Made by a program: the position numbers and the translations under genes. A stretch of DNA of 64,000 nucleotides, from IMG/VR virus record IMGVR_UViG_3300043803_001772; one strand, written 5' to 3'. Within the stretch, counting starts at the first letter, position 1. Each line of letters opens with the position of its first letter. Positions 1,818 to 15,740 of this stretch are shown in pieces. This DNA comes from a virus. Its lineage: Duplodnaviria; Heunggongvirae; Uroviricota; Caudoviricetes. A model generated the notes under the pieces. That model saw nothing but the letters and a program-made list of their open reading frames with translations. It did not search any database and was not told where the DNA came from.

Positions 1818-1846
1818 TTGACTTTATAACAAGTAGATGTTAATAT
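1818..1846 (+). promoter_or_regulatory. sigma70-like early promoter TTGACT-N17-TAATAT
   Basis: Seen directly. ATG of the kinase gene lies 7 nt downstream. Confidence 0.5.
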
Positions 1847-1852
1847 ACACAT

Positions 1853-2311
1853 ATGAATAACACAATTTATATTGCCGTTGGCTTGCCTGGAAGTGGTAAG
1901 TCAACTTATGCAAAGAACTTTATTAAAGACAAAGATATTGAATATCTAAGTAGTGATGAACTACGTGCAAAATTTGGAAGTGGAGAAACGGACCAAACTT
2001 GCACAAATCAAGTTTTTGGTCATATCAAACGAAAGGTTGACGAATTTCTAAAAGATGGTAAAAATGTATTAGTAGACGCAACTAGTGTAAATCGTAGAGA
2101 ACGAAGTGACTACACTAATACAGCCAAAAAGTATGGTGCAAAGGTAGTTGCTCTTGTATTCAAGATGGATCGTGATGGATTAATTGCACGAAACCAGAAG
2201 AGAGGTAGTGAAGGTGGTAGAGTTGTACCTACTTTTGTAATCGACAAAATGCTTGCTAAGTTTGAAGAACCTTCTACAAATGAAGGCATTGATGAGGTAA
2301 TTTATGTTTGA
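1853..2311 (+). CDS. polynucleotide 5'-kinase-like P-loop kinase (T4 Pnk kinase-domain-like, 152 aa)
   Basis: Walker A GLPGSGKST (T4 Pnk has GCPGSGKST). Downstream SSDELR, VDATSVNRRER and RNQKRGSEGGRVVPTFV parallel the T4 Pnk kinase-domain motifs. Promoter at 1818-1846. Confidence 0.7.
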   Translation: MNNTIYIAVGLPGSGKSTYAKNFIKDKDIEYLSSDELRAKFGSGETDQTCTNQVFGHIKRKVDEFLKDGKNVLVDATSVNRRERSDYTNTAKKYGAKVVALVFKMDRDGLIARNQKRGSEGGRVVPTFVIDKMLAKFEEPSTNEGIDEVIYV

Positions 2312-2978
2312 AAGACCGCTAAAACTAATTCATAATGATGATCACAAGGTATTCTTTACCAGTGATACTCATTTCCGACATAATCAAAGCTTCATATTTG
2401 AAGCTAGAGGATATAAAGATCGTTATGAACACGATGATGCTTTGATTGCGAAGATCAATGAAGTGGTGCGTCCAGAAGATACACTAATTCATCTTGGTGA
2501 TTTTTGTCTTAATATTACTCCGCCTGAGTTCAATGAAATTCTGGCTAGAATCAATTGTCAAAACATTGCTTATATTTGGGGCAATCATAACAGCTGTATT
2601 CGTAAGCATTATGAAGATGCTGTTGCTGGCCATTTGAATATGGTTAGATTCACTGGTAACAGTCCTAATGATGGCATTGAAGTGTATCCATATGCAATTG
2701 GTAAACTAACTTATCTGGGTTATTATAAGGAATTGATTGTAAACGGTCATATGATTGTTATTCATCATTACCCACATCAAATCTTTAACCAAATGCAAAA
2801 GGGTGCTTGGCAGTTGAGTGGTCATAGTCACTATACCAATCCAACCACTCAGGTAGATTATCCAGACAATAAAATTCTGGATGTAGGTTGGGATGGTCAC
2901 GGTAAGCCGTTGTCATTCCCAGAGATTCAGAAGATTATGTTGAATAAGAACCACGTTAAGCAAGATAAACATCATTAA
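2304..2978 (+). CDS. calcineurin-like metallophosphoesterase (putative 2',3'/3'-phosphatase partner of the kinase)
   Basis: Metallophosphoesterase motif series: SDTHFRH (DxH), GDFCLN (GD), GNHN (GNH[DE]), HHYP (H), SGHSH (GH). It overlaps the kinase gene by 8 nt, indicating translational coupling. Confidence 0.7.
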   Translation: MFERPLKLIHNDDHKVFFTSDTHFRHNQSFIFEARGYKDRYEHDDALIAKINEVVRPEDTLIHLGDFCLNITPPEFNEILARINCQNIAYIWGNHNSCIRKHYEDAVAGHLNMVRFTGNSPNDGIEVYPYAIGKLTYLGYYKELIVNGHMIVIHHYPHQIFNQMQKGAWQLSGHSHYTNPTTQVDYPDNKILDVGWDGHGKPLSFPEIQKIMLNKNHVKQDKHH

Positions 2979-2986
2979 GTATACAA

Positions 2987-3019
2987 ATCCCCTCCGTAAA
3001 AAGAGGGGATTTTTGTTTT
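2987..3019 (+). terminator. rho-independent terminator (atcccctc/gaggggat + TTTTGTTTT)
   Basis: 8-bp stem plus a T-run. Confidence 0.6.
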
Positions 3020-3046
3020 GACTTGTTATAAAACCTGTGGTAGATT
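3018..3046 (+). promoter_or_regulatory. sigma70-like early promoter TTGACT-N17-TAGATT (GTGG immediately before the -10)
   Basis: Follows terminator 2987-3019. Shares a 'gtggTAGAtT' -10 context with the promoters at 5534 and 8649. Confidence 0.55.
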
Positions 3047-3055
3047 GAGTTTGTT

Positions 3056-3532
3056 ATGTCAAAGCCATATATTCACGCTCAAAGTTCAGTCCGTAAGTTC
3101 GGCGGTCAGCCACAGGATTATGAACCTATTCACGCCTTTATGGATTGTAGTAAGGGTGCAATTGCGGATAACCGACATCGTGCTCTAACCCACAATAGTT
3201 GGTTTCTTAGTAATATTCTGGAACGAGTAAAGTTTGCTAATAGTGGTCCAGAAACAAGTGATCATCGTTTTCCTACTATTATTAATAGTGATGGACGTAG
3301 TGTAAGTGTGCGGGATATTGGTGAACAACATTGTTTGGAAGACTTTGCTAATAAGTTTATTCCTTCAGCACAAGATTATCTGGCTGAAATGGAGTTCAAG
3401 AGTTGGATGCAGAATGGCATTTCACATCCTCCTAGCTTTGTGAAAATTGATGAAGGTCGTAAATCCCGTGCTAAAAATGGTTTGACTTCTAAAACTTTCG
3501 GTGGTAGTATTAAAAATGTAATCGGAGACTAA
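3056..3532 (+). CDS. conserved hypothetical phage protein (158 aa)
   Basis: ORF with promoter 3018-3046 and RBS-less short leader. No catalytic motif recognised. Confidence 0.5.
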   Translation: MSKPYIHAQSSVRKFGGQPQDYEPIHAFMDCSKGAIADNRHRALTHNSWFLSNILERVKFANSGPETSDHRFPTIINSDGRSVSVRDIGEQHCLEDFANKFIPSAQDYLAEMEFKSWMQNGISHPPSFVKIDEGRKSRAKNGLTSKTFGGSIKNVIGD

Positions 3533-3550
3533 CAAAACAAAACAAAACAT

Positions 3551-3937
3551 ATGAAAGAGTCACTTAAGAAAATTGAAGAGCTAAAGAATCAACTCAACAC
3601 AGTTAAGTCAGAACTCCAGAAGGAGTTTAAGGCTGAACTAAAGAAGATCTTTGTTGATAATCCTACACTGGACAGCATTGAGATGTATCTTAATAACCAC
3701 GAATTTAACGATGGTGGCGCAACCTCATTCTATATTGGATATGAAGATCTCAAGATTGTAGTAGAAGGTGAAGAAGTTGAACGTGAGTGGGATAATGCAA
3801 CGAAGGAATATAAGCCAAATCCACTGCTTGAATCACTAATTGAACTTTTTGGTGATGTTCAGTGTATCCACGAAGACCTATATGGTGATGAATATGAACA
3901 TCTGTCTATTATCCGTGAGGAAGTTCTAAAGTTTTAA
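3551..3937 (+). CDS. hypothetical protein (128 aa), N-terminal coiled-coil
   Basis: ORF tightly packed after the previous gene. KxxELKxQL heptad-like N-terminus. Confidence 0.45.
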   Translation: MKESLKKIEELKNQLNTVKSELQKEFKAELKKIFVDNPTLDSIEMYLNNHEFNDGGATSFYIGYEDLKIVVEGEEVEREWDNATKEYKPNPLLESLIELFGDVQCIHEDLYGDEYEHLSIIREEVLKF

Positions 3938-3940
3938 TAT

Positions 3941-4330
3941 ATGAGTTCATATCGTAGAGCAACATTACAGGATCTAGCCAAACTTGGTTACGTTCCTAAT
4001 ACACAAAAGTATAGTGAACATATTGCGTTTGCCAAGAAGTATTATCCTCCTGAAGCAACCACAATGGTTATGGTAGTTCATAGTGAGTACAACGATTGTA
4101 CCTATGATAATAGTTTTCAGTATGTCATTGTATATGACAAGGATGGCAATGAACTTCCTCCACTAAAGAAGACTGCCAAAGAATGTCGTGCAAATTGGAA
4201 TATTGATAATCTGCCTATTCCAAACACAAGAGACGGCGATTATGATTCAGCTGAATCAGATGAACCTTTGAATGATGTAGTTATTCCATTGACCACTGAA
4301 GTTCCAGAACTTTATATCAAGGAGAATTAA
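3941..4330 (+). CDS. hypothetical protein (129 aa)
   Basis: ORF begins 4 nt after the previous stop. No recognisable domain. Confidence 0.45.
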   Translation: MSSYRRATLQDLAKLGYVPNTQKYSEHIAFAKKYYPPEATTMVMVVHSEYNDCTYDNSFQYVIVYDKDGNELPPLKKTAKECRANWNIDNLPIPNTRDGDYDSAESDEPLNDVVIPLTTEVPELYIKEN

Positions 4331-4333
4331 TAT

Positions 4334-4585
4334 ATGTTTAGTAATAAAAATATTGTAAAGTATTGCACAAAGTATTTTGTTTTGATGACAGCGGGTGCTT
4401 ATGTTTTTAACACATCCGTGATATTGATTAATCAAAAAAGTGACATTGCAAATCTTATCGGGTCCGCACTTTTTGCTGGACTTTTTATCAGCACGCTGGT
4501 AATCTTAAAAAGTGATGTGACCAAGTTGGTCAAGAAACTAGAAGAAAATAAAAACAAAGAAAATAAAAACAAAGAAAATGAATAA
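4334..4585 (+). CDS. small membrane protein (83 aa) with C-terminal ENKNK repeats
   Basis: Two hydrophobic segments and (ENKNK)x3 at the C-terminus. RBS AAGGAGAA upstream. Overlaps the next gene by 8 nt. Confidence 0.4.
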   Translation: MFSNKNIVKYCTKYFVLMTAGAYVFNTSVILINQKSDIANLIGSALFAGLFISTLVILKSDVTKLVKKLEENKNKENKNKENE

Positions 4586-5483
4586 GAAGATCGTTAGTCT
4601 AATCGCCGGTATCGTCGCCATCTCAACTTTCACTGGTTGTGATAGGGTTGAGCCTGGTTATGTTGGTATCAAGGTAAATCAGTGGGGTAGCCAGAAGGGA
4701 GTCAATGATTTCCCGTTGGTTACTGGTGGTGTGTTCTACAACCCTATCACTGAGGATATCTATAAGTTCCCTACTTTTATGCAGAATGCTGTGTGGGATC
4801 GTGAACGTGGGAGCAAGGAAAGTCCTGGCGATGACAGTGTAACTTTCAATAGTATTGAAGGTGCGGTGGTTAATGCTGATATTGCTCTGGCTTACACGTT
4901 TATTGCTGAGAAGGTTCCTCAGATTTTCGTTGAGTTTCGTCAGTCGCCTGATGTTATTACTCATGGATTTATGAGGAATGAGGTGAATAACGCATTCAAT
5001 CGTGTTGCTAGTACTATGAAGGCTAGTGACATCTTTGGTGAGAGGAAGCAGTATCTTCTTGACAATGTTAAGAGCAATCTTAACGTCCAACTTGGACCCA
5101 AGGGATTTAGGTTTGAGTTGATCAGCTTCCACGGTGGTCTTCGTGTTGATCAGAGTGTTCAGACTCGTATCAATGCTGTACTAGAAGCTAGTCAGAAGGC
5201 TATTGAGGCTGAAACCAAGGTTCGTCAAAGTAAGGCTGAGGCGGATCAGGTGATTGAGAAGGCTCGTGGTGAGAAGGAAAGTAACATTGCCAAGGCAGAG
5301 GGTGAGGCTCGGAGTATTGCTCTTAAGGCAGAGGCTCAGTCCAAGGCTAACTTGGTGTTGGCTCAGTCTCTAACCCCGGCACTGGTTCAGTATGAAGCGC
5401 TTCAGAGGTGGGATGGTAAGTTGCCGGTATATAATGGCGGAGGAGTTGTGCCGTTCATTAATGTTGGAAATACCAACCGATAA
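4578..5483 (+). CDS. SPFH/band-7 (prohibitin/HflC-like) lipoprotein
   Basis: Lipoprotein-like signal ending FTGC. VEPGYVGIKVNQWG start typical of the band-7 fold. Long Ala/Glu/Lys coiled-coil tail (KAEADQVIEKARGEKESNIAKAEGEARSIALKAEAQ). Confidence 0.6.
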   Translation: MNKKIVSLIAGIVAISTFTGCDRVEPGYVGIKVNQWGSQKGVNDFPLVTGGVFYNPITEDIYKFPTFMQNAVWDRERGSKESPGDDSVTFNSIEGAVVNADIALAYTFIAEKVPQIFVEFRQSPDVITHGFMRNEVNNAFNRVASTMKASDIFGERKQYLLDNVKSNLNVQLGPKGFRFELISFHGGLRVDQSVQTRINAVLEASQKAIEAETKVRQSKAEADQVIEKARGEKESNIAKAEGEARSIALKAEAQSKANLVLAQSLTPALVQYEALQRWDGKLPVYNGGGVVPFINVGNTNR

Positions 5484-5501
5484 GTGGTAGGATAAGTGGA
5501 G

Positions 5502-5533
5502 AAACCCGCTAGAGAAATCTGGCGGGTTTTTTG
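5502..5533 (+). terminator. rho-independent terminator (aacccgc/gcgggtt + TTTTTT)
   Basis: Stem plus T6, located after the SPFH gene. Confidence 0.6.
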
Positions 5534-5562
5534 TTGACTTTGTTTAAACTACGTGGTAGAGT
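5534..5562 (+). promoter_or_regulatory. sigma70-like early promoter TTGACT-N17-TAGAGT
   Basis: Follows terminator 5502-5533. cgtggTAGAGT. AAGGAG RBS downstream. Confidence 0.55.
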
Positions 5563-5571
5563 TAAGGAGTA

Positions 5572-5889
5572 ATGAATATCGTAGATTACATTGTAAAGAA
5601 TTGGGACACTCTTCCTAAGAGCAAGTTTGATGATGACCACATCGTAATTTTCAAGGAGATTGAGAATTGGGATGGTGGTTATGGTCACCACTCTTATGAG
5701 GGTATTGGTGTTGACAAGGATGGTAACGTCACTTGGTGTTACAGCTCTGGTTGTAGCTGTAGTGGTGGACCCTCGCTTGATACCAAGAAGGACTTGAAGG
5801 TGTTTGTTGTAAATGATGGAATTGATTTGAATGTAGATCCGTCTACTATTAATTTCAAGTCACTTGAGGTTGAGTTTACCAGTTATTAA
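5572..5889 (+). CDS. hypothetical protein (105 aa)
   Basis: Promoter 5534-5562 and strong RBS AAGGAG 8 nt upstream of the ATG. Confidence 0.5.
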   Translation: MNIVDYIVKNWDTLPKSKFDDDHIVIFKEIENWDGGYGHHSYEGIGVDKDGNVTWCYSSGCSCSGGPSLDTKKDLKVFVVNDGIDLNVDPSTINFKSLEVEFTSY

Positions 5890-5947
5890 TTTAGAAAAAT
5901 AAGATAGCAAGTTGTAATTAACAATATTCATTTTCATACTTATTAGT

Positions 5948-6679
5948 ATGAAGAAATGGATTATATATAAAACAACTTGTACAGTCAATAATAAAATATA
6001 CATAGGTCAACATAAAACTGATAACATTGATGATGGATACATTGGTAGTGGAAAACTAATTACCAGTGCAATTAAAAAATATGGAAAAAATAGTTTTAAC
6101 CGAGAAATATTAGAAGAATGTTTTACATTTAACGACGCTAGAGAAAAAGAAGAATTTTATATTAAAAAATTTAATTCTACAAATAGAGACATAGGTTATA
6201 ATATAACTCCATATGCATGGGGAGGTCAACCTATGACAGCTGAAACAAGATTAAAAATAAGTCAACTAAATAAAGGAAAAACTCGTTCGATTGAAACGAG
6301 AGAAAAAATGAGAAAAGCTAAAACAGGTACCACTTGGTCAGTACAACATAAATTAAATCAAATTAAATCTAAAATCGGTAAAAAATGGTATCATAATCCC
6401 ATAACACTAGAATCTAAAAAATTCAAAGATGATGAGGGTATACCAAATGGATGGTTGTTTGGTAGAGGCAATACTCAAAAAATAGGACCTGAAAGGAAAA
6501 AACAATCTTTTTCTAAAGATGCACTTGAAAACATCAGAAATGCAAATCTAAATCCGGAAAAAAGAAGAAAAACATCTTGTACTTTGAAGGGACATAGTGT
6601 ATCGTTAGAGACGAGAGAAAAAATAAAAAATAGTTTAAAAAAATTTTATGAGAAAACTAGCGTCAATCAAAAAAATTGA
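5948..6679 (+). CDS. GIY-YIG homing endonuclease with C-terminal NUMOD3-like DNA-binding repeats
   Basis: WIIYKTTCTVNNKIYIGQHKT...GYIGSGK...REKEEFYIKKFNS...GYNI matches the I-TevI/Seg GIY-YIG core. Repeated ETR(L/E)KI/MRKAKTG and ETREKIKNSL motifs. The gene is markedly AT-richer than its neighbours. Confidence 0.8.
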   Translation: MKKWIIYKTTCTVNNKIYIGQHKTDNIDDGYIGSGKLITSAIKKYGKNSFNREILEECFTFNDAREKEEFYIKKFNSTNRDIGYNITPYAWGGQPMTAETRLKISQLNKGKTRSIETREKMRKAKTGTTWSVQHKLNQIKSKIGKKWYHNPITLESKKFKDDEGIPNGWLFGRGNTQKIGPERKKQSFSKDALENIRNANLNPEKRRKTSCTLKGHSVSLETREKIKNSLKKFYEKTSVNQKN

Positions 6680-7658
6680 AGAAATCAAGTTAATTGAAGG
6701 AGCAGATAAAATTTGCGCATATCGTGTGGGGGGTTGGTGGGTAGTAGATTCTGTGACTAAATACAAGGTGGGTGATTTGGCTGTTTATTACGAAATTGAC
6801 AGCTTTTTGCCGATCCGCCCTCAATTTGAATTTCTACGCAAGAGTAGTTTCAAGCGTATGGGTTCTACTGAGGGATTTCGTCTCAAGACCATTAGGCTCC
6901 GTGGACAGATCAGTCAGGGTCTATTGACTCCAATTCCAGAGGGTATTAGTAATCCAAAGGAAGGTGATGATTTGACTGAGGCTCTTGATATTGTCAAGTA
7001 TGAACCTCCTATTCCCGCTCAATTGGCTGGAAAGATCAAGGGAACATTTCCTAGCTTTATTCCAAAGACTGAGGAAATTCGTATTCAGAACTTTGAGAGT
7101 GAAGTTGGATTTAGTCCAGTTGGTGAGCGTGCTTATATAACTGAAAAGTTGGATGGTACTAGTTTCACTTGTTATTTTAACAACGGTGTATTTGGTGTTT
7201 GTGGCCGCAATTGGGAGTTGTCTGAAACTGATGACAATAGTCTATGGCGTATGGCCAAGGTGCTTGAATTGAAGGACAAGATGACTAAACACGGCAAGAA
7301 TATTGCTTTGCAGGGAGAACTAATTGGTGCTGGTATCAATGGTAATTTGTATGGATTGAGCGACCACAAGTTGTACTTCTTTACTGGTTATGACATTGAT
7401 AAGGGTCGCCGTATGTTCTTTGATGAACTTGAGTGGGTATTGTTTGGTTTGCAATTGCAGATGGTGCCTGTACTTGAGAAGTATGGATTTGTAATTCCAA
7501 ATGAAAACAATATTGTTGACTATATGTTGAGGTATGCTGAAGGTAAGAGTGTATTGAATATGGAAGTTGATAGGGAAGGTGTGGTTGTACGTGGTCTTGA
7601 GAAGGAGTTTAGTTTCAAGGCTATTAGCAATACGTATCTTCTTGGAAGTAAGGATTGA
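6648..7658 (+). CDS. RNA ligase (nucleotidyltransferase; Pfam RNA_ligase-family-like)
   Basis: Motif I AYITEKLDGTSF (KxDG lysine-adenylate motif). N-terminus KLASIKKIEEIKLIEGADKICAYRVGGWWVVDS typical of this RNA ligase family. Overlaps the HEG 3' end by 32 nt. Confidence 0.65.
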   Translation: MRKLASIKKIEEIKLIEGADKICAYRVGGWWVVDSVTKYKVGDLAVYYEIDSFLPIRPQFEFLRKSSFKRMGSTEGFRLKTIRLRGQISQGLLTPIPEGISNPKEGDDLTEALDIVKYEPPIPAQLAGKIKGTFPSFIPKTEEIRIQNFESEVGFSPVGERAYITEKLDGTSFTCYFNNGVFGVCGRNWELSETDDNSLWRMAKVLELKDKMTKHGKNIALQGELIGAGINGNLYGLSDHKLYFFTGYDIDKGRRMFFDELEWVLFGLQLQMVPVLEKYGFVIPNENNIVDYMLRYAEGKSVLNMEVDREGVVVRGLEKEFSFKAISNTYLLGSKD

Positions 7659-7662
7659 TATC

Positions 7663-7698
7663 AAAAGGGAGGTATGTAACAGTACCTCCCTTATTTTT
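7663..7698 (+). terminator. rho-independent terminator (gggaggta/tacctccc + TTATTTTTAT)
   Basis: 8-bp stem, 8-nt loop, T-run. Located after the RNA ligase. Confidence 0.6.
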
Positions 7699-7935
7699 AT
7701 GAAAAAGTATAGTATCAAGACAAATGATATTGGTATGTGTATGAGTGTAGGTTGTGATTTTTATCAAACTTGCACCAATAATAGTGTAAATATGTTTTAC
7801 AAGACCAAACGAAAGTTTGAACCAGTGCTTGAAGAATCAATTTGTTTGAGTTATAGTAGTGGAAAGAATAGTAAAGACTACCCAGACAATTGTTATCCCA
7901 ACGTATTGAAGAAGATTTATGAATCTGGATATTAA
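7699..7935 (+). CDS. small Cys-rich protein (78 aa)
   Basis: ATG at 7699 directly after terminator 7663-7698. 8 Cys. The track ORF 7567-7935 extends upstream into the ligase gene and was trimmed. Confidence 0.35.
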   Translation: MKKYSIKTNDIGMCMSVGCDFYQTCTNNSVNMFYKTKRKFEPVLEESICLSYSSGKNSKDYPDNCYPNVLKKIYESGY

Positions 7936-8644
7936 ATTTGTGGAACTACCACAAGAACCATATAAAGTTCCAATGAAACTAGAAAAGACCACATTAAATT
8001 TATTTGTAAAGCATTTACCCACATCAAGTGTGTTGGAGTATTTGATTGAGTTATTGCCTAAGTGTACTGAAAATGGTCCGTGGATTGCTGGTGGTTGTTT
8101 ACATAGAACCTATCGTAAGTTACCATTAACAAATGCTGATGTAGATGTATTCTTTAAAAACAAAGAACAATTTGAAAAGTTTGTATATGATCTGAGTGTA
8201 AGCAGTGTTACTGCGGGATATATAAAAATTGAATCTACCATATACAGTGAGTGGCATTGTACACTTACAATTAAGTATATGGATGTTGATTGGAAGATTC
8301 AGTGCGTAACATTCAAATATTTTGATACTATTGAAGAACTATTTAAGTCATTTGATATCAATGTATGTCGCATTGCTTATGATGGTACCAATGTAGTTTA
8401 TGAAAATGGCATTTTAGATGATATCAAGACTAATAAATTGAAGTTTAATGAAGGTAGTATTTACTATCCTAGTGTAACATTGAAACGATTGGTTAAGTAT
8501 ATTAAGATGGGATATGACGTTGAAGATGTGGATCTTAAATTGTTGACCCACGCTTTTTATAAGTCTAAGAAAAAAGCAATTGACATTCTTGACCAAGACT
8601 TGGCTACAAAAAAGCCAATTGAAACTTATAAAGGTTTAAAATAA
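7919..8644 (+). CDS. hypothetical protein (241 aa)
   Basis: ORF overlapping the previous stop. No motif recognised. Confidence 0.45.
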   Translation: MNLDIKFVELPQEPYKVPMKLEKTTLNLFVKHLPTSSVLEYLIELLPKCTENGPWIAGGCLHRTYRKLPLTNADVDVFFKNKEQFEKFVYDLSVSSVTAGYIKIESTIYSEWHCTLTIKYMDVDWKIQCVTFKYFDTIEELFKSFDINVCRIAYDGTNVVYENGILDDIKTNKLKFNEGSIYYPSVTLKRLVKYIKMGYDVEDVDLKLLTHAFYKSKKKAIDILDQDLATKKPIETYKGLK

Positions 8645-8648
8645 GCTG

Positions 8649-8676
8649 TTGACATTTTGAAAAAAGGTGGTAGATT
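8649..8676 (+). promoter_or_regulatory. sigma70-like early promoter TTGACA-N16-TAGATT
   Basis: aggtggTAGATT. Located immediately after the stop of 7919-8644. Confidence 0.5.
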
Positions 8677-8712
8677 GGTACTTGTGATGAGCACCAAATC
8701 TACCACTTTTTT
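8669..8712 (+). other. leader stem-loop (ggtagattggt...accaaatctacc) + T7 overlapping the -10 of promoter 8649-8676
   Basis: Imperfect 11-bp inverted repeat with a T-run. Possible attenuator or terminator inside the 5' region of gene 8687-9535. Confidence 0.3.
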
Positions 8713-9535
8713 TAGCAATCAAATCAAAAATGGACTTCTCAAGCTTGAGAAGAAAAACAAGTCTGAGTCTCACCTTTCTAGGGTTGACCACTTGGTTGCA
8801 TCGTTGACTGACATTGGCATCAACAAGCTTCCTCAATTTGACAGTGTGGATGAGTTCCTCAAGGAAGTGAATGATGTTAACAGTGATGCACATAAAATTG
8901 ACAATGTGCTTGCGTTGCCTGAGAACATCAAGCATCAAACTGGTCGTGGTGAGTTGTCTATGTTTTTGATGCTTGGTGATTCACGCAAGAGCAATATCAA
9001 ACGTGGTGAAACTGGTGATGTAACGCTTAATGACAAGTCGTATGAATTGAAGAAGGAAAGTGGCATTATTGATTTTGCTATCAAAACGAGGGGTGAAGTC
9101 ACTGATCGTTACAATGAACTTGTTATGATTCGTTCGTTTTGTGATAAGATTTTGAATGCCTATTTTGTTGACAGTAACGTTACCAAGTATTTTAATCAAT
9201 ATTTTCGTAAGAAGATCACTGAGTTTTCCAGTGCTGATTTTGAATTGTTTGATAATTTGTTGGTTATGATCAAATCTGATACTGATATTCGTAACAAGAT
9301 TACTGGTACTATTTTGATTGATGTTATCAATAACTTTTCAGCTTACGAATGGCGTAAGAAAGTTGCGCAACTGATTGTTAAAAGTTATAGTGGTGGTGTC
9401 GTTGTGTATCGTAAGAGCAAGAAGGGCAATCGTAAAGTAAAGCGAGTGGATAGCAAGTATGAATTGCTTGATGCTAAGAATGTTATTGTGCAGAATCTTA
9501 CACTGGGTAATATTCAGTTGAAGATTATTAATTAA
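8687..9535 (+). CDS. hypothetical protein (about 283 aa)
   Basis: The track ORF starts at TTG 8657, inside the promoter 8649-8676. The first ATG after the -10 is 8687 (MSTKSTTFFS...). Start is uncertain because a stem-loop plus T-run lies at 8669-8712. Confidence 0.45.
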   Translation: MSTKSTTFFSNQIKNGLLKLEKKNKSESHLSRVDHLVASLTDIGINKLPQFDSVDEFLKEVNDVNSDAHKIDNVLALPENIKHQTGRGELSMFLMLGDSRKSNIKRGETGDVTLNDKSYELKKESGIIDFAIKTRGEVTDRYNELVMIRSFCDKILNAYFVDSNVTKYFNQYFRKKITEFSSADFELFDNLLVMIKSDTDIRNKITGTILIDVINNFSAYEWRKKVAQLIVKSYSGGVVVYRKSKKGNRKVKRVDSKYELLDAKNVIVQNLTLGNIQLKIIN

Positions 9536-10241
9536 ACTCTATTATTGTTTCTTTATCTGATTTGAGTTTGGGATATTCTATAATGGGATAATTCAAACTT
9601 TTAATCAGATTTTTCTTTTCCACTTTGCTTCCCAGTGGATAGATATATCTTTCTTTGACTGACAATTCTTTGATTTTAAATGGTCTGGGTAGTACTTCTA
9701 TTAATTTGTTATAGTTAAACGTACCATATTTGTTAAATAGTGTACGTGAATGTTGCCATTTAACACCACCATCAAAACTAACAATATAACCACTGGTACC
9801 TTTGGGTCTTTCAATATTTTGATACAGCCAATTGGTAGCTTGATATATGGTACCGATGTGTCCAGCATCAGGATCAGCATAACTTATCAAACATTTTATT
9901 TCAGGATGATTGAGTTTGATATATTTCAAACATTGACCAATAACCCAACTTTCAGTATTTTTACCCAAATCATCTTCTACCCACAATCGTTTCAACTCCC
10001 ATAAATTGGAATGATTTAGTAAAGGTGATACACTTCTAGCCACATTAGCACCAGCAGTTGGTCCAAATACAACCGCCCCAACCAGCTTAGGCGCTTCAAA
10101 AAATACACTACCTTTGCTTTTGTCGAAGATTCCTATACACAACTCAGCTATGGTCCATTTGTGTGTATAATGATGTTTAACAATCAATTCTTTGGCAGTC
10201 AAATTGTTTACTTTTTCAACATAAAGATTTTCCATAAACAT
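9528..10241 (-). CDS. Mom-like DNA-modification acyltransferase (phage Mu Mom family), tentative
   Basis: From memory of the Mu Mom alignment: KHHYTHKW...VGAVVFGPTAGANVARS...WELKRLWV...KNTESWVIGQCLKYI...LISYADPDAGHIGTIYQATNWLYQ resembles the Mom HHY and SYAD..GH.G.IYQA.W.Y motifs. Opposite strand to the surrounding genes. Confidence 0.45.
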   Translation of the reverse strand: MFMENLYVEKVNNLTAKELIVKHHYTHKWTIAELCIGIFDKSKGSVFFEAPKLVGAVVFGPTAGANVARSVSPLLNHSNLWELKRLWVEDDLGKNTESWVIGQCLKYIKLNHPEIKCLISYADPDAGHIGTIYQATNWLYQNIERPKGTSGYIVSFDGGVKWQHSRTLFNKYGTFNYNKLIEVLPRPFKIKELSVKERYIYPLGSKVEKKNLIKSLNYPIIEYPKLKSDKETIIEFN

Positions 10242-10262
10242 ATCATATCATACCCACCTCAA
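10242..10262 (-). promoter_or_regulatory. candidate promoter for the Mom-like gene (TTGAAA-N17-TATGAT on minus strand, near-leaderless)
   Basis: Reverse complement reads ttgaaattttgaggtgggtatgatatgatATG. Weak. Confidence 0.25.
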
Positions 10263-10286
10263 AATTTCAAAATATAAAAAAGGTTG

Positions 10287-10315
10287 TTGACTTTTTATAA
10301 AGTCGCTGGTATTAT
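10287..10315 (+). promoter_or_regulatory. sigma70-like promoter TTGACT-N17-TATTAT for the deaminase-like gene
   Basis: Seen directly. Divergent from the Mom-like gene. Confidence 0.5.
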
Positions 10316-10718
10316 GAATTTAGTAATGAACAGTAAGATTTTGAAGCGTACCATTGACATTGCCAAAGCTATGTGTCCGCTTAACCTAGAGCATAGGTGT
10401 AGTCATATAGCTTTTTTGATTAAGTGTGGAAAGATTGTACATATTGGTACAAATAGCTGTAAGAGTCATCCTGAGACACTTAAATACGATTATAAAAACC
10501 ATCAACTGGTTGGTTTGCACGCTGAGTTGAGTGTGTGTATGAAGAGTGGCAAGGAGGATCTTAGGGATTTTAAAATGGTTGTTCTTAGGGTAGATCGAAC
10601 TGGCAAGTTGAACAACAGCAAGCCGTGTTGTGGTTGTCAAAGTGTGATCAAGCAATTTAATGTGGGTGAAGTGTGGTATAGCGATTCTAATGGAGATGTA
10701 ATTAAAAATGAAAATTGA
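10314..10718 (+). CDS. cytidine/dCMP deaminase-fold zinc enzyme (about 134 aa)
   Basis: Zinc-binding HAE (GLHAELSVC) and PCxxC (KPCCGCQ) signature of the CDA/dCMP deaminase fold. The track start TTG 10284 lies inside the -35 of promoter 10287-10315. ATG 10314 or 10326 is the likely start (near-leaderless). Confidence 0.6.
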   Translation: MNLVMNSKILKRTIDIAKAMCPLNLEHRCSHIAFLIKCGKIVHIGTNSCKSHPETLKYDYKNHQLVGLHAELSVCMKSGKEDLRDFKMVVLRVDRTGKLNNSKPCCGCQSVIKQFNVGEVWYSDSNGDVIKNEN

Positions 10719-11229
10719 ATTCAAATCTGAGGTTTATAGTCTGGGAGAAATTTCTCTTAAAGAACTGAAACGATACAAGATGATTAATGACTATGTTTAC
10801 AATCAAGTTAGAGTTGGCGGATGTGGGGAATTGATTGAACGAATCATATTGGATTATTTGACCACCAAAAGCGGTTATACCAATATCAAAAAGAGTCCAG
10901 CAAACAGCAAGTGGGATTTTGAATTAACAGATGATCCCACCGTTCGTGTAGACGTTCGTCGTGTATCTCCGACAAATACAATTTATCTTGGACATACATC
11001 AGGCAATCTTAAAAAATTGATTTGGGAAGACAAAGCTGAAGTTCTCAACAACGGTGGGTATTTTTGTATCAAGTTGTGTGAGGATAAAATGGTGTTGTTT
11101 TATATTTCAGCAAAAAGTTTGCTCAATTATGTGTATGAACATCCTAATTTCGAGTTAAAAAACGAAGTACCTGTAAAAATTCTCAACGAAAAATTTTGGA
11201 AGACGCTCAACGTTCCGCTTGACAATTAA
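10708..11229 (+). CDS. hypothetical protein (173 aa)
   Basis: ORF overlapping the deaminase stop. No convincing motif. Confidence 0.45.
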   Translation: MKIEFKSEVYSLGEISLKELKRYKMINDYVYNQVRVGGCGELIERIILDYLTTKSGYTNIKKSPANSKWDFELTDDPTVRVDVRRVSPTNTIYLGHTSGNLKKLIWEDKAEVLNNGGYFCIKLCEDKMVLFYISAKSLLNYVYEHPNFELKNEVPVKILNEKFWKTLNVPLDN

Positions 11230-11253
11230 AGAAACCAATGTTAAGATGATTTT

Positions 11254-11285
11254 GTTGTGAGGAACTGGTTCACAACTCTTAATTT
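11254..11285 (+). terminator. possible weak terminator hairpin (gttgtga/tcacaac)
   Basis: 7-bp stem, 9-nt loop, weak T tract. Sits in the 150-nt gap before 11380. Confidence 0.3.
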
Positions 11286-11379
11286 AAATCCAAAAAGCAC
11301 TTACGCTGTCTGTGATAAAAATTATTAATTAGACAATTATGTCATAACCCAAATCCAGTAATAAAAGGAAAATAATAAT

Positions 11380-12561
11380 ATGATCGGTACAAATGAAAAG
11401 ACAATTAAGTCCACAACTGAAAACTGGGAACTCTCCAATGTAAAGAAGTTTCTCGATAGCGTCTTTATCGACGATAGTTTTCAAAGTCCTGCACGTTGGG
11501 ACGGTGCAAAGTCACGCAGTTATCTTGATTCGCTATTTAAGGGAATCGCTCCAAGCAAGTTTATTTTTGCTGATGTAGTTGAATGCCGGAAGAATTCACT
11601 GTCAACGGAAGATATCAACTATTATTCCGATTGGCTTTCCGAGGGAGCTAACTATCTTAACCTTGATAGCAACAACCGTTTTACTACCCTACGATTGTTG
11701 TTTACTAACCAACTGGAATTGCGTGCTGGAACATATTGTGACAATCTAGGCAATAAGTTTACTATCAAGCGTGAACAGCGGTGGGCTGATCTAAGCGAAT
11801 CAGTTAAGGATTTTATTCTTACTCGTACAATTACACTGGAAGTGTATACCAAGGCTACTCGTTCACAGTTGAGTGACATTTTCATCGCTGTAAATAGTGG
11901 ATGTGAATTGAACGCTGCTGAAAAGCGTAACGCTATTATTAGTCCCATCTCAAAGATTTGTCGGGAATTGGGTGAGAACTATTACAAGAATTTCAGTACC
12001 CGTAGTTGGATTCTTTCAATCTTTTCAGAACAGGATTATAACCGTCGTAAGATTGACTCACAGTTTGCTGGTATGGCATTCTTCCATAGTTTTGGATTCA
12101 AGAAGAACATCAGTGATGGTATTCTTTATAGTGAATATGAAACTGGCTCTGAGCTAAATAGCAAGTCAACTTGTTTTAAGAATGACGTAGATGAATTCTT
12201 TAATACGTGGGTTGCTCCAAATGAAGATATCTTCAAGGAAAGTATGAAGCTAAGTAAGCAAACTGTGTTTGACTTGTTTGTGTTTTATCACCGTCATCGT
12301 AATCAGATCAAGGATGTGAATATGTTTCTGAAAAAGTTTGTGGAAATCAACACTCTTTTGAAGAAGAATCCTGAAGCTGACCACAAGGTTGGCGACAAAA
12401 AGATGACATACGCAGCGTTGCTCCGTGGTCGTGAAACCCCAAAGTGTCAGAAGCGATATGAACTGTTGGCCAATGGATTGGTTAAGTCAAAGGTAATGAC
12501 AGACGAAAACGTAACAGCAGTTTATAAGTATAAAACAAAAATCAATACAGTGTCAGCTTAA
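11380..12561 (+). CDS. DUF262-like (ParB/Srx-fold, GmrSD N-domain-like) protein
   Basis: QSPARWDGAKSRSYLDSLFKG and LDSNNRFTTLRLL parallel the DUF262 'fQR..vW' and 'DGQQRLTTL' motifs (QQ to NN). IFIAVNSGCELNAAEKRNA matches the second DUF262 block. RBS AAAGGAAAA upstream. Confidence 0.5.
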   Translation: MIGTNEKTIKSTTENWELSNVKKFLDSVFIDDSFQSPARWDGAKSRSYLDSLFKGIAPSKFIFADVVECRKNSLSTEDINYYSDWLSEGANYLNLDSNNRFTTLRLLFTNQLELRAGTYCDNLGNKFTIKREQRWADLSESVKDFILTRTITLEVYTKATRSQLSDIFIAVNSGCELNAAEKRNAIISPISKICRELGENYYKNFSTRSWILSIFSEQDYNRRKIDSQFAGMAFFHSFGFKKNISDGILYSEYETGSELNSKSTCFKNDVDEFFNTWVAPNEDIFKESMKLSKQTVFDLFVFYHRHRNQIKDVNMFLKKFVEINTLLKKNPEADHKVGDKKMTYAALLRGRETPKCQKRYELLANGLVKSKVMTDENVTAVYKYKTKINTVSA

Positions 12562-12571
12562 ACCACACCAA

Positions 12572-12606
12572 AGTCAAGGACGATGAAAATCTCCTTGACT
12601 TTTTTC
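12572..12606 (+). terminator. rho-independent terminator (agtcaagga/tccttgact + TTTTTT) overlapping the next promoter's -35
   Basis: 9-bp stem, 11-nt loop, T6. Located after the DUF262-like gene. Confidence 0.6.
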
Positions 12607-12623
12607 TTGCGCCGTGGTAATAT
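12595..12623 (+). promoter_or_regulatory. sigma70-like promoter TTGACT-N17-TAATAT for the DNA ligase, -35 embedded in terminator stem
   Basis: ccgtggTAATAT. The -35 hexamer forms the 3' arm of hairpin 12572-12600. Confidence 0.55.
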
Positions 12624-12633
12624 TATAAAAGAT

Positions 12634-13731
12634 ATGAAACTACCTATGTTATTCGCTCGTACCAATACGGGTGCTATTCAAACTTGGACCATTGAGGTTG
12701 ATGGTAACAAGTATCGTACTCACTATGGACAGATTGATGGAGCAATCCAAACAACCGAATGGACTTTGTGTGAGGGTAAAAATTCAGGTAAAAAGAATGC
12801 TACTTCATCTGAAGATCAAGCCGTAAAAGAAGCCAAAGCCACTTGGAAGAAGAAGAAAGAAAGTGGTTATTTTGAAAACATCAAGGACATTGATGAATCT
12901 TCATTTACTGAGCCAATGTTGGCCAAGAACTATGATGACTACAAGGATGAATTGAAGTATCCAGTTTATAGTCAACCCAAGTTGGATGGTATTCGTTGTG
13001 TTGTAAAGCGTGATGGTATGTGGAGCCGTAATGGTAAACCTATTGTTTCAGCTCCTCACGTACTGGTTGCATTGAAACCTTTCTTTGACAAGTTCCCCAA
13101 TGCAATTCTTGATGGTGAATTGTATGCTGATAAGTTTGCCAATGACTTTAATGCTATTTGTAGTTTGGTAAAGAAGACCAAGCCTACCGCTGAAGATTTG
13201 GCTGAGAGTGAAAAGAATATTCAATACTGGGTTTATGACTGGATTGTACAGAAGACTTTTAGTGACCGCAATAGTGACATTACTACTTATATTGTTAATA
13301 ACAATGTGGTTCGTCGTGTTCCGACTCACCTTGTGGACACGATTACACATTTAAATGAGTTGTATGAAAAGTATGTTGACGAAGGATACGAGGGTCAGAT
13401 GGTTCGTACCGATGGGCCATATGAGAACAAACGAAGCAAACATCTTCTCAAGCGTAAGGAGTTTCAAGATAGTGAATTCACTATTCTTGATATTGTTGAA
13501 GGTGTAGGTAACAAGAGTGGTATGGCTGGACATATGGTATTCAAAAACCATAAAGGTATTGAGTTCCACAGTAATATTAAGGGTGATCGGCAATATTTGA
13601 AGCAACTATTGAAGAATAAAAATAAGCTCATTGGAAAGAGTGCTACGGTGAAGTATTTTAACCTTACACCTGGAGATGAACTGCCCAGATTCCCGTATGT
13701 CACCAACATTGATCGTGAAAGTTATGAATAA
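12634..13731 (+). CDS. ATP-dependent DNA ligase (T7-ligase-sized, 366 aa)
   Basis: Motif I PKLDGIRCVV, motif III ILDGELYAD, motif IV YEGQMVRTD, motif V HLLKRKEF. The track start 12583 lies inside terminator/promoter 12572-12623. The ATG at 12634 follows the -10. Confidence 0.8.
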   Translation: MKLPMLFARTNTGAIQTWTIEVDGNKYRTHYGQIDGAIQTTEWTLCEGKNSGKKNATSSEDQAVKEAKATWKKKKESGYFENIKDIDESSFTEPMLAKNYDDYKDELKYPVYSQPKLDGIRCVVKRDGMWSRNGKPIVSAPHVLVALKPFFDKFPNAILDGELYADKFANDFNAICSLVKKTKPTAEDLAESEKNIQYWVYDWIVQKTFSDRNSDITTYIVNNNVVRRVPTHLVDTITHLNELYEKYVDEGYEGQMVRTDGPYENKRSKHLLKRKEFQDSEFTILDIVEGVGNKSGMAGHMVFKNHKGIEFHSNIKGDRQYLKQLLKNKNKLIGKSATVKYFNLTPGDELPRFPYVTNIDRESYE

Positions 13732-13918
13732 TATTAATAAAACTAAATCTGCTAGAATTGTATTGGACATTGAATGGGAAGCTGTTGATGATAGTGATCT
13801 ACCATCCCTATGGGATTGGAAACGCATCAAGATGCCTATGGATTTGACCAAGGTAAAGTATATTGGTATTCAAACCCCAAATGGACCAGAGAATGTAACT
13901 AATTGGATGGGAAATTAA
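13724..13918 (+). CDS. small hypothetical protein (64 aa)
   Basis: ATGAATAA start overlaps the ligase stop. Trimmed from track ORF 13676-13918. Confidence 0.35.
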   Translation: MNNINKTKSARIVLDIEWEAVDDSDLPSLWDWKRIKMPMDLTKVKYIGIQTPNGPENVTNWMGN

Positions 13919-14112
13919 ATTATATGACTATTGTAAAAACATCAGAAATTATTGAATGGGTTAAAAACGCAGTGGAAAAGAAGATGATCAAGGAATTGAA
14001 TATTCCTAATGCTAAGGTTTATCTTAGTTGTGATCGTCCAAATCCAGATGTAATTCTTGAAACCAAGAATGCAGATGGTGATCTACAGATTGTAAGATTT
14101 CTGATTATATGA
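13903..14112 (+). CDS. small hypothetical protein (69 aa)
   Basis: ORF overlapping the previous stop by 16 nt. Confidence 0.3.
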   Translation: MDGKLNYMTIVKTSEIIEWVKNAVEKKMIKELNIPNAKVYLSCDRPNPDVILETKNADGDLQIVRFLII

Positions 14113-14190
14113 ACACTGACACACTATATTATGGATTGTGTTTTATTGGATTATTACTAATTATCAGTGCATTTTTTATTATAACCAAAG

Positions 14191-14388
14191 ATGACAACCA
14201 ATAAGTTTTTCTTGAAGTTAGCTAGAACTATTGACCACCGTGTAGGTCATACAGATGAATGTAAGCCAGATGTGCCTGTATTGCCTGTAAATTATGCTCT
14301 AGCTAGTTTTTCCTTGAGGTTTATCATTGTTCTGGTAAACTTTATTACATGCGCCTTTATTATCGCAAACATCATTCATCACTGGTAA
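14191..14388 (+). CDS. small hydrophobic protein (65 aa)
   Basis: ORF with a C-terminal hydrophobic segment. Weak. Confidence 0.25.
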   Translation: MTTNKFFLKLARTIDHRVGHTDECKPDVPVLPVNYALASFSLRFIIVLVNFITCAFIIANIIHHW

Positions 14389-14394
14389 ACATTT

Positions 14395-14586
14395 ATGAGC
14401 AATCCAAAATATTATTTAACAGTTAATCTACCACCAAATTTTGACGATGTAGATGCAGAGGCCATTAAAACTGATTTAATGGCTTATATTAACAGCAAGA
14501 ATCAGTATGGGGCTATGTATGGTCCCAAGTCACATAAAAAAGGAATTACTGTTGATAAAGTAATTTACAGAACCAATGAAGACTAA
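14395..14586 (+). CDS. small hypothetical protein (63 aa)
   Basis: First of a run of seven tightly overlapping small ORFs (ATGA-type overlaps). Confidence 0.35.
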   Translation: MSNPKYYLTVNLPPNFDDVDAEAIKTDLMAYINSKNQYGAMYGPKSHKKGITVDKVIYRTNED

Positions 14587-14794
14587 CAAAATAGTAATTG
14601 ATAGACTACGAGAATTTACACAAAAAAATTGTAATACCACAATTGATCCAAAGTTGTGTGAAGATATTCGTTATCTATGTGATGAAGTGGAACGATTTAG
14701 CCGTGAGATTGTAAAGGCTAATGATCATATGGATGAAGATTTTATTACAATTCAAAGATATAAAAATAAACTAAGCAAATATGAATCGTTTTAA
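14576..14794 (+). CDS. small Cys-containing hypothetical protein (72 aa)
   Basis: Overlaps neighbours at both ends. Confidence 0.35.
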   Translation: MKTNKIVIDRLREFTQKNCNTTIDPKLCEDIRYLCDEVERFSREIVKANDHMDEDFITIQRYKNKLSKYESF

Positions 14795-15005
14795 TAAAAT
14801 TATGTTGGGTAGTTTAGCAGCAATTCTATTGACTGCTATGACAGTAGAACCACCAAAAATTAAGGTATATCTAATTATGTCATATAGAGGTAATGATTTG
14901 GCAATTGAAAAGGTATATCTCAAGAAAGAAAATGCTGAAAAATATCGTGATATGTACAAAGATAGTCATAATTATTCAGTAGAAGAACGTGAGTTAACAG
15001 AATGA
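14781..15005 (+). CDS. small protein with N-terminal hydrophobic helix (74 aa)
   Basis: ORF in the same overlapping series. Confidence 0.35.
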   Translation: MNRFNKIMLGSLAAILLTAMTVEPPKIKVYLIMSYRGNDLAIEKVYLKKENAEKYRDMYKDSHNYSVEERELTE

Positions 15006-15247
15006 AGAAACTATTAATTATTGCATTATTGTGTACTGGATGTTCCAGTGGAATGTTGTTGAGATACAGTTATAATAGAGCATTGGAAACACTACCTCCT
15101 TGCAGCAGAGTGCATTCTATTAACAACGAGTATATTACTTATAGTATGATTGAAAACTCCACAAATAGTGTATATGTAGTACACACAAACTATTATAGGG
15201 CTTATTATAATTGTGACGGTAAAATCATTAAAACAATTAAAAATTGA
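15002..15247 (+). CDS. small secreted/lipoprotein-like protein (81 aa)
   Basis: MKKLLIIALLCTGCSSG signal-like N-terminus. Confidence 0.4.
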   Translation: MKKLLIIALLCTGCSSGMLLRYSYNRALETLPPCSRVHSINNEYITYSMIENSTNSVYVVHTNYYRAYYNCDGKIIKTIKN

Positions 15248-15456
15248 TGAAAGAACAAATTGATTCTATCATCAAAAAACATTGCTTAAAAATGCAAGAA
15301 GTAGATAAGAACAAAAGCATTCCTATGACAGTAAAAGATTTGGATCATATTGTATATGATATGTACCGAGAACTGTATGGACTACGTGATATACGTGCTA
15401 GTAACTACAATCTTAATAGTTTTACCGCAGATGATAAAAAGGGTCATTGTTGTTAA
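15244..15456 (+). CDS. small hypothetical protein (70 aa)
   Basis: ORF in the same overlapping series. Confidence 0.35.
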   Translation: MMKEQIDSIIKKHCLKMQEVDKNKSIPMTVKDLDHIVYDMYRELYGLRDIRASNYNLNSFTADDKKGHCC

Positions 15457-15740
15457 TTATGAAAAAGAAACAAACTCCAGCGTGTCAAAAAGTGGAACTA
15501 GACAATTGTTTTAGTTGTAAAGTTGTTGCTGGCAAACCACACAAAAAAAAGTGTGACATTGAAAGATGTAGTGTATGTGGTGGCCAAAAGTTAGGATGTG
15601 AGTGTGTTGACCACGATAAACAATTTGCTAGATGGACTGGCTTTTGGCCTGGGGAACTTGAATGTAAAGCGTTGAATATGGATTTGAATACTTTTTATAT
15701 GACAGGAATGCACAAAATATTCTTTGTCAAACCCCGATAA
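15447..15740 (+). CDS. Cys-rich putative zinc-binding small protein (97 aa)
   Basis: CQKVELDNCFSCK...KKCDIERCSVCGG...GCECVDHD: four or more CxxC-like pairs. Confidence 0.4.
   Translation: MLLIMKKKQTPACQKVELDNCFSCKVVAGKPHKKKCDIERCSVCGGQKLGCECVDHDKQFARWTGFWPGELECKALNMDLNTFYMTGMHKIFFVKPR

Follow-up and report, generated by a model that had tools for sequence, protein, structure and literature searches.

Do genes of "DNA-flavoured" function that lie side by side in a phage genome belong to one pathway, or do they only share an address? The question is raised by positions 9,528 to 12,561 of a 64,000-nucleotide stretch of viral DNA (Caudoviricetes; IMG/VR virus record IMGVR_UViG_3300043803_001772), the whole of which is called here the window. 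A Mom-like gene, a small deaminase gene and a DUF262 gene follow one another closely there, and an initial annotation, made from the letters alone, proposed that they could form a single hypermodification or anti-restriction module. We argue for a different reading, to which we give a probability of about 0.7: that the region of 7.9-12.6 kb is a variable accessory region between RNA and DNA ligase genes and holds three independent units, not one pathway. The units would be a stand-alone Mom enzyme, a small deaminase of nucleotide metabolism, and the DUF262 protein together with the product of ORF173, an open reading frame (ORF) lying between the deaminase and DUF262 genes. ORF173 had been left out of the initial annotation, although it is the gene most relevant to the DUF262 protein. 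The features concerned are the following.

9528-10241, minus strand: Mom-family enzyme of 237 amino acids (aa), recognized by Pfam PF25680, PHROG 1384 and PDB 8bv8
10242-10313: divergent intergenic region of 72 bp between mom and the deaminase gene, with back-to-back sigma-70-like hexamer pairs
10314-10718, plus strand: small zinc deaminase of 134 aa, ATG at 10314, with HAE and PCxxC motifs, assigned through a family profile
10708-11229, plus strand: ORF173, 173 aa, predicted PD-(D/E)xK fold, upstream partner of the DUF262 gene; its start overlaps the deaminase stop
11380-12561, plus strand: divergent DUF262 (ParB/Srx-fold NTPase-like) protein with a helical domain, 393 aa, without a C-terminal HNH

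Separation of the units in related genomes

Adjacency of such genes in a phage accessory region does not amount to a pathway, and in metagenomic relatives a natural deletion and a cassette swap separate the units cleanly (related loci are designated below by L and a number). One shared in-frame deletion, with its junction between ATGAACAGCAAA and AGTGTGGTC, occurs in L019/L006 and in L036 and removes deaminase residues ~9-107, including both zinc motifs. In these genomes Mom is 92-96% identical, and Mom, ORF173 and the DUF262 gene are intact. The catalytic core of the deaminase has been lost from relatives that kept Mom, and the enzyme is therefore dispensable and not coupled to Mom.

The pair formed by ORF173 and the DUF262 gene is in turn found without Mom. 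In L020 the pair and the ligase are present, the small deaminase is not, and no Mom lies within 7 kb upstream or 3 kb downstream; at the L034 locus, too, neither Mom nor the small deaminase accompanies the pair. Such loci make it less likely that Mom and the pair are functionally linked. Nevertheless, Mom, deaminase and pair are adjacent in several lineages, which leaves room for a link between Mom and the pair and counts against complete independence.

Furthermore, L036 (656-2494) and L040 (1354-3178) hold a second, deeply divergent allele of ORF173 plus DUF262, with 41-46% aa identity to that of the window, inside flanks (ORF292, Mom, the deaminase or its remnant, and ligase) that are 88-96% identical to the window. 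A divergent pair within near-identical flanks indicates that both genes were exchanged together, as a cassette. Compared with metagenomic relatives of ~90% identity, the genes for Mom (dN/dS ~0.10), the deaminase, ORF173, the DUF262 protein and the ligase give dN/dS values of 0.09-0.22, and these ORFs are therefore real, constrained genes under purifying selection.

The limits of the variable region are set by two ligase genes, between which two further ORFs precede mom.

6648-7658, plus strand: RNA ligase (OB domain plus ligase domain; PF21189 and PF09414), the left-hand anchor
7919-8644: NTase-like ORF241 (PHROG nucleotidyltransferase, 1.8e-10)
8657-9535, plus strand: ORF292, syntenic in close relatives and within the variable block absent from L034
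12583-13731, plus strand: ATP-dependent DNA ligase (PF01068 and PF14743), the right-hand anchor

The Mom, deaminase and DUF262 genes are syntenic in seven close relatives and in L040, and the close relatives and L020-L023 all have the DNA ligase gene 3' of that for DUF262; only a ligase fragment, cut by the contig end, is present in L034, L036 and L040. The order in L034 is RNA ligase, ORF173 plus DUF262 pair, ligase fragment, without the NTase-like ORF, ORF292, Mom or deaminase.

A divergent member of the Mom family

The proposal that the minus-strand gene at 9528-10241 is Mom-like is borne out. The ORF, which contains KHHYTHKW and ISYADPDAGHIGTIYQATNWLYQ, matches PF25680 over the full length of the profile (positions 1-202 of 202, protein residues 5-225; 148.8 bits against a cut-off of 27.1, E=2.1e-43), as well as PHROG 1384, "Mom-like DNA modification protein" (1.4e-48), and the crystal chain of Mu Mom, 8bv8 (E=1.6e-12, window residues 6-140), by homology to which its predicted fold is that of the GNAT proteins. 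Membership of the Mom family is secure, and the window protein is a divergent addition to an already known family. Its start is likely the conserved ATG at 10235, since the ATG at 10241 reads ATA in relatives. The initial annotation also called it the only minus-strand gene in this part of the early region; the strand is right, but a minus-strand frame at 1403-1717 is open as well.

The Mom family represents a recently explained viral adenine hypermodification that uses charged tRNA. Mu Mom by itself takes glycine off Gly-tRNA(Gly) and attaches it to adenine N6 in double-stranded DNA, after which the glycyl group rearranges to N6-carbamoylmethyl-dA (PMC13219725). For this, R111 and S124 are indispensable, and H58, Y59, D149, R151, Y159, W181 and a helix-turn-helix (HTH)-like insertion are also important; ~9,600 Mom-like genes have been counted in viromes (PMC13219725). 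Mom-like genes also occur in 329 deposited phage genomes, in varied contexts, and the Polaribacter and Aeromonas phage Mom loci that we examined have no deaminase or DUF262 neighbour. The nearest isolate homologue of the window protein is gp53 of Polaribacter phage P12002L, with 40% identity.

Like Mu Mom, the window enzyme is encoded by a single phage gene; the homology is full-length, and seven key residues are kept. In a MAFFT alignment of six sequences (the window Mom, Mu Mom and four other Mom-like proteins), window H24/Y25, R85, S98, D123, Y133 and W162 fall on Mu H58/Y59, R111, S124, D149, Y159 and W181. These columns, including those of R85 and S98, are invariant across the six sequences with the exception of that of W181. 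The Mom-specific HTH-like insertion (Mu ~175-209) aligns to window residues ~154-191, at the level of the MAFFT sequence alignment only. Mu R154 corresponds to H128, within a "GHxG" subtype common to the four non-Mu Mom-like proteins aligned, and Mu W48, at the dimer interface, corresponds to L14 in a variable column (LWKNKS).

The best reading is that of a stand-alone anti-restriction hypermodification enzyme with the predicted Mom activity. No tRNA gene was found in the window, hence no phage tRNA-Gly for Mom, which would therefore use host tRNA. The enzyme would take glycine from the Gly-tRNA(Gly) of the host and place it on adenine N6 in the double-stranded DNA of the phage, where the glycyl group would rearrange to N6-carbamoylmethyl-adenine and block many restriction enzymes; donor, product and timing are those predicted by homology. 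Three differences weigh against so direct a transfer from Mu: the two proteins are only 28% identical, and the product is extrapolated from this distant enzyme; R151, essential in Mu, is D125 in the window, in a variable column (DRMEFD); and the first ~34 residues of Mu Mom, including a basic stretch at 11-19, are lacking. R151 and W48 appear to be Mu-specific and not family-defining. Moreover, a "GHxG" subtype without the essential R151 of Mu should be useful to test which residues serve donor and DNA recognition, in a divergent Mom from an abundant uncultured phage lineage with no evident Shine-Dalgarno sequences.

A small deaminase near the dCMP deaminases

A deaminase with HAE and PCxxC motifs, transcribed divergently from mom, had been described at this locus, and both the ORFs and the motifs are as described: the protein carries GLHAELSV and SKPCCGC. 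Finding its family required an exhaustive search of representative sequences, used instead of a word-index homologue search that was saturated by relatives of at least 78% identity. It revealed a large family (1851 clusters at E<=1e-3) of single-domain proteins of ~125-140 aa, with members in large phages among others. Among 42 members, of which 36 match PF00383 at E<=0.01, the zinc motifs H69-A-E71 and P104-C105-C-G-C108 are conserved (H69, E71, C105 and C108 invariant, P104 nearly so), together with the family-specific motifs H31 and N47...H52-P53 (KTHP).

A search of PDB with the single sequence gave nothing usable, and a profile was required. With the 42-member profile dCMP deaminases come first, namely those of the S-TIM5 cyanophage (4p9c, 3.9e-9), human (2w4l, 3.4e-8), S. 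mutans (2hvv, 2.1e-7) and T4, the Cd enzyme (1vq2, 1.3e-5), all matched at the profile level; cytidine deaminases (CDA) follow at 6e-3 or weaker and TadA at 0.15 or weaker. The window enzyme had been noted as much shorter, at 134 aa, than T4 Cd. The length is correct and is no anomaly, since the single-domain S-TIM5 enzyme, which also has HAE and PCxxC, measures 138 aa. As for clustering with canonical dCMP deaminases used for dTTP synthesis, which had been named as a finding that would speak against the module, the profile is indeed nearest to dCMP deaminases, but as a distinct subfamily and not clearly as canonical members, and this nearness does not extend to a role in dTTP supply. The small deaminases are thus a large, biochemically uncharacterised subfamily near the dCMP deaminases. 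The window enzyme most likely converts dCMP (or dCTP) to a dU nucleotide and would in this way raise the dTTP supply of a genome with 64% A+T.

In other phages, deaminase homologues are not beside Mom; that of Erwinia phage Hallingskeid lies near genes for thymidylate kinase and anaerobic ribonucleotide reductase. L020, devoid of the small deaminase, has a canonical dCMP deaminase of 169 aa (PF00383, 81 bits; PF00383/MafB19), which the small-family profile matches with an hhalign probability of 94%. This finding and the natural deletion both speak for a role in nucleotide pools and against coupling to Mom.

Several minor observations concern this gene. The canonical dCMP deaminase of L020 is at 3855-4364, and a small generic GNAT of 126 aa (5966-6346) lies directly upstream of its ORF164 plus DUF262 pair, in the place held by Mom and deaminase in the window. 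The deletion allele reads MSLVMNSK joined to SVVKQFNVGEVWYSD... at 5236-5337 of L019 and 556-654 of L036, and the junction is the same although the two genomes otherwise differ. What remains of the gene is its start and its 3' end, the latter overlapping or abutting the next gene. A neighbourhood of deaminase and DUF262 homologues in ACG-2014f-type cyanophages was also considered and rejected as a coordinate coincidence, the annotated regions showing that the two are not neighbours.

A DUF262 protein and its predicted nuclease-fold partner

The third gene, at 11380-12561, carries LDSNNRFTTL and had been assigned to the DUF262/ParB-like proteins. The assignment stands, by an indirect route. The check that had been suggested, PF03235 against the protein itself, gave no match at E<=0.1. 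Nor is there a direct match in Pfam, PADLOC or NCBIfam, and a single-sequence PDB search returned nothing usable, a profile being needed. Nevertheless, among 104 homologues, 13 of the 30 sampled match PF03235 (GmrSD_N; best 7.6e-8), and an AlphaFold2 (AF2) model (pLDDT 86) matches ParB/Srx-fold proteins, BrxU and SspE. On the evidence of its homologues and modelled fold, the protein is a divergent predicted DUF262/ParB-fold member. By the published motif definitions (PMC12065111, PMC4619093) and the homologue alignment, it has candidate equivalents of the three motifs, namely a variant motif I, Q35-S-P-A-R39-W40 (canonical QRxxxW), a variant motif II, D96-S-N-N-R100 (canonical DGxQR), in which D, N99 and R are invariant, and motif III, F168xxxN172.

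Domains of this kind are not modification enzymes; they serve nuclease systems as NTPase/DNA-sensor modules (PMC4619093, PMC12065111). Like GmrSD, BrxU and SspE, the window protein has an N-terminal ParB/Srx-fold DUF262 domain with candidate equivalents of the motifs, then a helical domain, and an association with a putative nuclease. Those proteins carry a DUF1524/HNH, and the window has in its place a separate, upstream candidate nuclease of predicted PD-(D/E)xK fold; motif II is DGxQR in GmrSD and DSNNR here, and the former belongs to bacterial defence islands, the latter to a phage. Without DUF1524/HNH, the protein is not a member of GmrSD and only resembles GmrSD, BrxU and SspE. The sensors of the Menshen NsnA/DndB type are another likeness, as they combine DUF262 with helical DNA binding, have no nuclease of their own and work with separately encoded effectors, as we propose here. 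Menshen, however, has the NsnB ABC-ATPase and the NsnC inPIN effector, neither of which is adjacent in the window, where there are two genes only, in a phage context and with no PADLOC match. Indeed, none of the PADLOC models for Menshen, Dazbog, PD-T4-2, SspE and BrxU matches the 393-aa protein or ORF173 at E<=0.1.

Closer relatives exist in phages. Homologues of ~450 aa, such as gp32 of Synechococcus phage Sf-FS3 ("HNH Cas9-type domain-containing protein"; 23-36% identity, E down to 1e-46), have the same DUF262 and helical domains followed by a fused C-terminal Cas9-type HNH nuclease, and their place in T4-like phage contigs varies. No HNH is present in the window protein, which ends after the helical domain, or in any of its relatives of at least 40% identity, and Pfam finds none in the neighbouring genes. 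The Sf-FS3-type proteins combine the fused HNH with the absence of an ORF173 partner; in the window clade the HNH has been lost and ORF173 is present instead. One of these HNH-bearing homologues, in L026 (4808-7362), lies beside a gene with a DruA (Druantia) domain, PF14236; L026 is a T4-like contig (Gp23, T4 portal, UvsY), and a defence-type domain inside a phage structural region was unexpected.

An ORF173 homologue is immediately upstream of the DUF262 gene in every HNH-less relative (40-100% identity) with readable upstream DNA. There are six such paired groups, namely the window clade (7 contigs), L020-22, L034/35, L036, L037 and L040, with hmmsearch E-values of 1e-15 to 5e-79, and three HNH-bearing loci in T4-like contigs have no ORF173 homologue. 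An AF2 model of ORF173, which rests on 7 similar sequences, matches PD-(D/E)xK nucleases, with invariant E41 and E44 on a helix, D70 on a strand (70-72) and D82-V-R84 on the next strand. This pairing of HNH-less DUF262 proteins with a small nuclease-fold protein in phages is previously undescribed. Given the pairing, its complementarity with the HNH fusion and the predicted folds, ORF173 and the DUF262 protein look like a split GmrSD-like system in which a separate nuclease replaces the lost HNH. The DUF262 protein would sense a DNA feature, and NTP binding or hydrolysis would license cutting by ORF173. Foreign DNA, whether of the host or of a co-infecting phage, is the probable target; nuclease activity and physical interaction are likewise predicted. 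The layout would then mirror that of GmrSD, BrxU and SspE, which unite a nuclease with a ParB-like NTPase/DNA sensor and a helical domain that binds DNA.

Some observations argue in the other direction. The putative catalytic motif of ORF173, D70...D82-x-R84, has Arg where Lys is canonical, and two distant HNH-less DUF262 proteins (P0102 and P0104) have no ORF173 homologue nearby. The ~150-bp spacer between the two genes (11230-11379) includes a terminator-like hairpin (11254-11276), and ORF173 and DUF262 may therefore not be one transcript; a promoter-like site, TTGACA-17-TAAGAT, lies in the same spacer. All alleles have a spacer here, 90-170 bp long, with a sequence conserved only among close relatives, and no conserved element was found in it.

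DUF262-HNH proteins thus occur in T4-like phage genomes. If these proteins and the ORF173 plus DUF262 pairs are active nucleases, phages hold their own versions of bacterial sensors directed against modified phage DNA, which bears on inter-phage competition.

Weighing the alternatives

That Mom, deaminase and DUF262 protein serve one hypermodification or anti-restriction pathway, the deaminase for instance making or editing a base for Mom or the DUF262 protein, is the module of the initial annotation, and in its favour the three genes are adjacent and syntenic in the seven close relatives and L040, Mom and deaminase share the 72-bp divergent control region, and phage proteins of the dCMP-deaminase family can accompany cytosine modification (bioRxiv 10.1101/2024.12.05.627091). 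We nevertheless consider it very unlikely. The loss of the deaminase core in L019 and L036 with Mom intact largely refutes it; Mu Mom is sufficient in vitro by itself (PMC13219725); the DUF262 pair has no Mom at the locus in L020 and L034, and DUF262 domains are not modification enzymes; synteny among 90%-identical genomes is uninformative about function; and within 3 kb there is no thymidylate-synthase-like gene, the signature of cytosine-modification deaminases (bioRxiv 10.1101/2024.12.05.627091). A looser association, analogous to restriction-modification, would have the pair degrade DNA without the Mom mark, Mom marking self and the deaminase being a bystander. No more than 1.2 kb separates Mom from the pair in the window clade, L036 and L040, the same Mom is accompanied by either allele of the pair, and the DUF262 domains of GmrSD and SspE read DNA modification status (PMC12065111). 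Such an analogue is unlikely all the same, as the pair occurs in L020 with no Mom in the stretch inspected and in L034 directly after RNA ligase, as known DUF262 enzymes attack modified and not unmodified DNA, and as Mu-type momylation is partial, context dependent and post-replicative (PMC13219725), which would make for poor self-protection. We are likewise doubtful, though a little less so, of a more ambitious version of the preferred reading, in which the pair is a two-component DNA-state-sensing nuclease that exchanged its fused HNH for a PD-(D/E)xK effector and keeps divergent alleles for phage-versus-phage or phage-versus-host discrimination, possibly reading the Mom mark as "self". If true, viruses would possess a counterpart of type IV restriction that is linked to a hypermodification.

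The cassette and its DUF262-HNH relatives could also be selfish, homing-endonuclease-like mobile elements with no benefit for the phage. The place of the DUF262-HNH homologues does differ among T4-like contigs, structural genes being among their neighbours, the cassette has been exchanged between near-identical backbones, and a homing-type ORF (GIY-YIG/NUMOD3) is nearby at 5948-6679. Against this, which makes the proposal improbable in our view, the pair keeps to one locus, just before the DNA ligase gene, in most lineages examined; it varies as two divergent alleles rather than by presence and absence; both genes are under purifying selection (dN/dS as above); and two-component nucleases that depend on a coupled NTPase are a mark of defence systems rather than of homing enzymes. 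A narrower choice concerns the substrate of the small deaminase. Instead of serving dTTP synthesis with dCMP, the enzyme could act on 5-methyl- or 5-hydroxymethyl-dC nucleotides, on RNA or single-stranded DNA, or on a nucleotide involved in defence. The points that weigh against a dCMP deaminase meet here: the score of the window protein against PF00383 (19.8-20 bits, E ~7e-4) is below the gathering cut-off of 25; the S-TIM5, human and S. mutans enzymes have the Asn of HAExNA, whereas the window has HAELSV and the family HAELxAxxK without Asn, along with its own H31 and KTHP motifs; and there is no adjacent thymidylate synthase gene, nor any among the 30 Pfam-scanned early-region ORFs (positions 1-15740). 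The missing Asn and the score below the cut-off therefore make the substrate uncertain, and substrate preference is polyphyletic among phage relatives of dCMP deaminases (bioRxiv 10.1101/2024.12.05.627091). Even so, the best solved relatives are all dCMP deaminases, CDA and TadA being weaker, L020 carries a canonical dCMP deaminase in place of the small one, and natural dispensability is expected of a pool-balancing enzyme; we thus hold another substrate to be rather unlikely and retain dCMP (or dCTP) as the probable one.

Expression context of mom

Two divergent hexamer pairs occupy the 72-bp region between mom and the deaminase gene, which is conserved in relatives: TTGACT-17-TATTAT on the plus strand (10287-10315) and TTGAAA-17-TATGAT on the minus strand (10270-10242), both matching at 10/12 positions with TG and both with a -10 element that abuts the start codon. 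They are candidate promoters, promoter-like sites not being enriched in the scanned stretch (44 found against 44.7 expected). In contrast to Mu, no com-like translational activator gene was seen; furthermore, Mu mom is at the genome end, whereas the window mom is antisense within a block of early-strand genes.

At the other end of the gene, ORF292 on the plus strand and mom on the minus strand converge, and their stop codons overlap in the palindrome TTAATTAA (9528-9535). A terminator scan predicted none between the ORF292 stop and mom. Speculatively, plus-strand read-through from the ORF292 operon, antisense to mom, could delay or damp the expression of Mom.

By eye, no Shine-Dalgarno sequence is evident upstream of ~45 genes, which have A/T-rich leaders instead, with the single exception of mom, preceded by a Shine-Dalgarno-like GAGGTGGG (10242-10266, minus strand). 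Perhaps mom was acquired from a phage with another group of hosts, and the element is a relic of this. A further motif, CTATTTATA, has four exact copies, each a short way upstream of a late gene on the minus strand (18509, 28258, 57314 and 59666, minus strand), which makes it a candidate late-promoter element; mom has no copy upstream, and with one mismatch counted the motif shows no enrichment.

Source of the window and neighbouring genes

The window is nearly identical to the IMG/VR contig UViG_3300035670_000056 (115 kb), and its relatives are on viral contigs of up to 171 kb. Among 50,697 deposited phage genomes, megablast found no match to the region, nor did tblastn find one in phages for a 690-aa late-region protein. 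A host of the Bacteroidota type is plausible. Six proteins were scanned with PADLOC and NCBIfam without a match, and there was none in Rfam either. ORF292 has no significant match in Pfam, PHROG, PDB or by phage tblastn (one Tenui_N match of 16 bits is below the cut-off), and PDB and phage searches with ORF241 were uninformative.

The early block also encodes a P-loop kinase (1853-2311; AAA_33/KTI12/Zeta-toxin-like, E=5e-27), which with the RNA ligase (PHA02142 OB domain) and the NTase-like protein makes a set with the look of RNA repair. This set may be a tRNA-repair module against anticodon nucleases, which would be notable in a phage whose Mom would use up charged tRNA. The ORF at 5948-6679, homing-endonuclease-like with GIY-YIG and NUMOD3, overlaps the RNA ligase start by 32 nt at its 3' end, and a homologue (35% identity) is also near the 43%-identical Mom genes of L011 and L012. 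The same block encodes a DUF6915 protein (3056-3532, E=4e-33) and an SPFH/Band-7 protein (4578-5483, E=7e-17).

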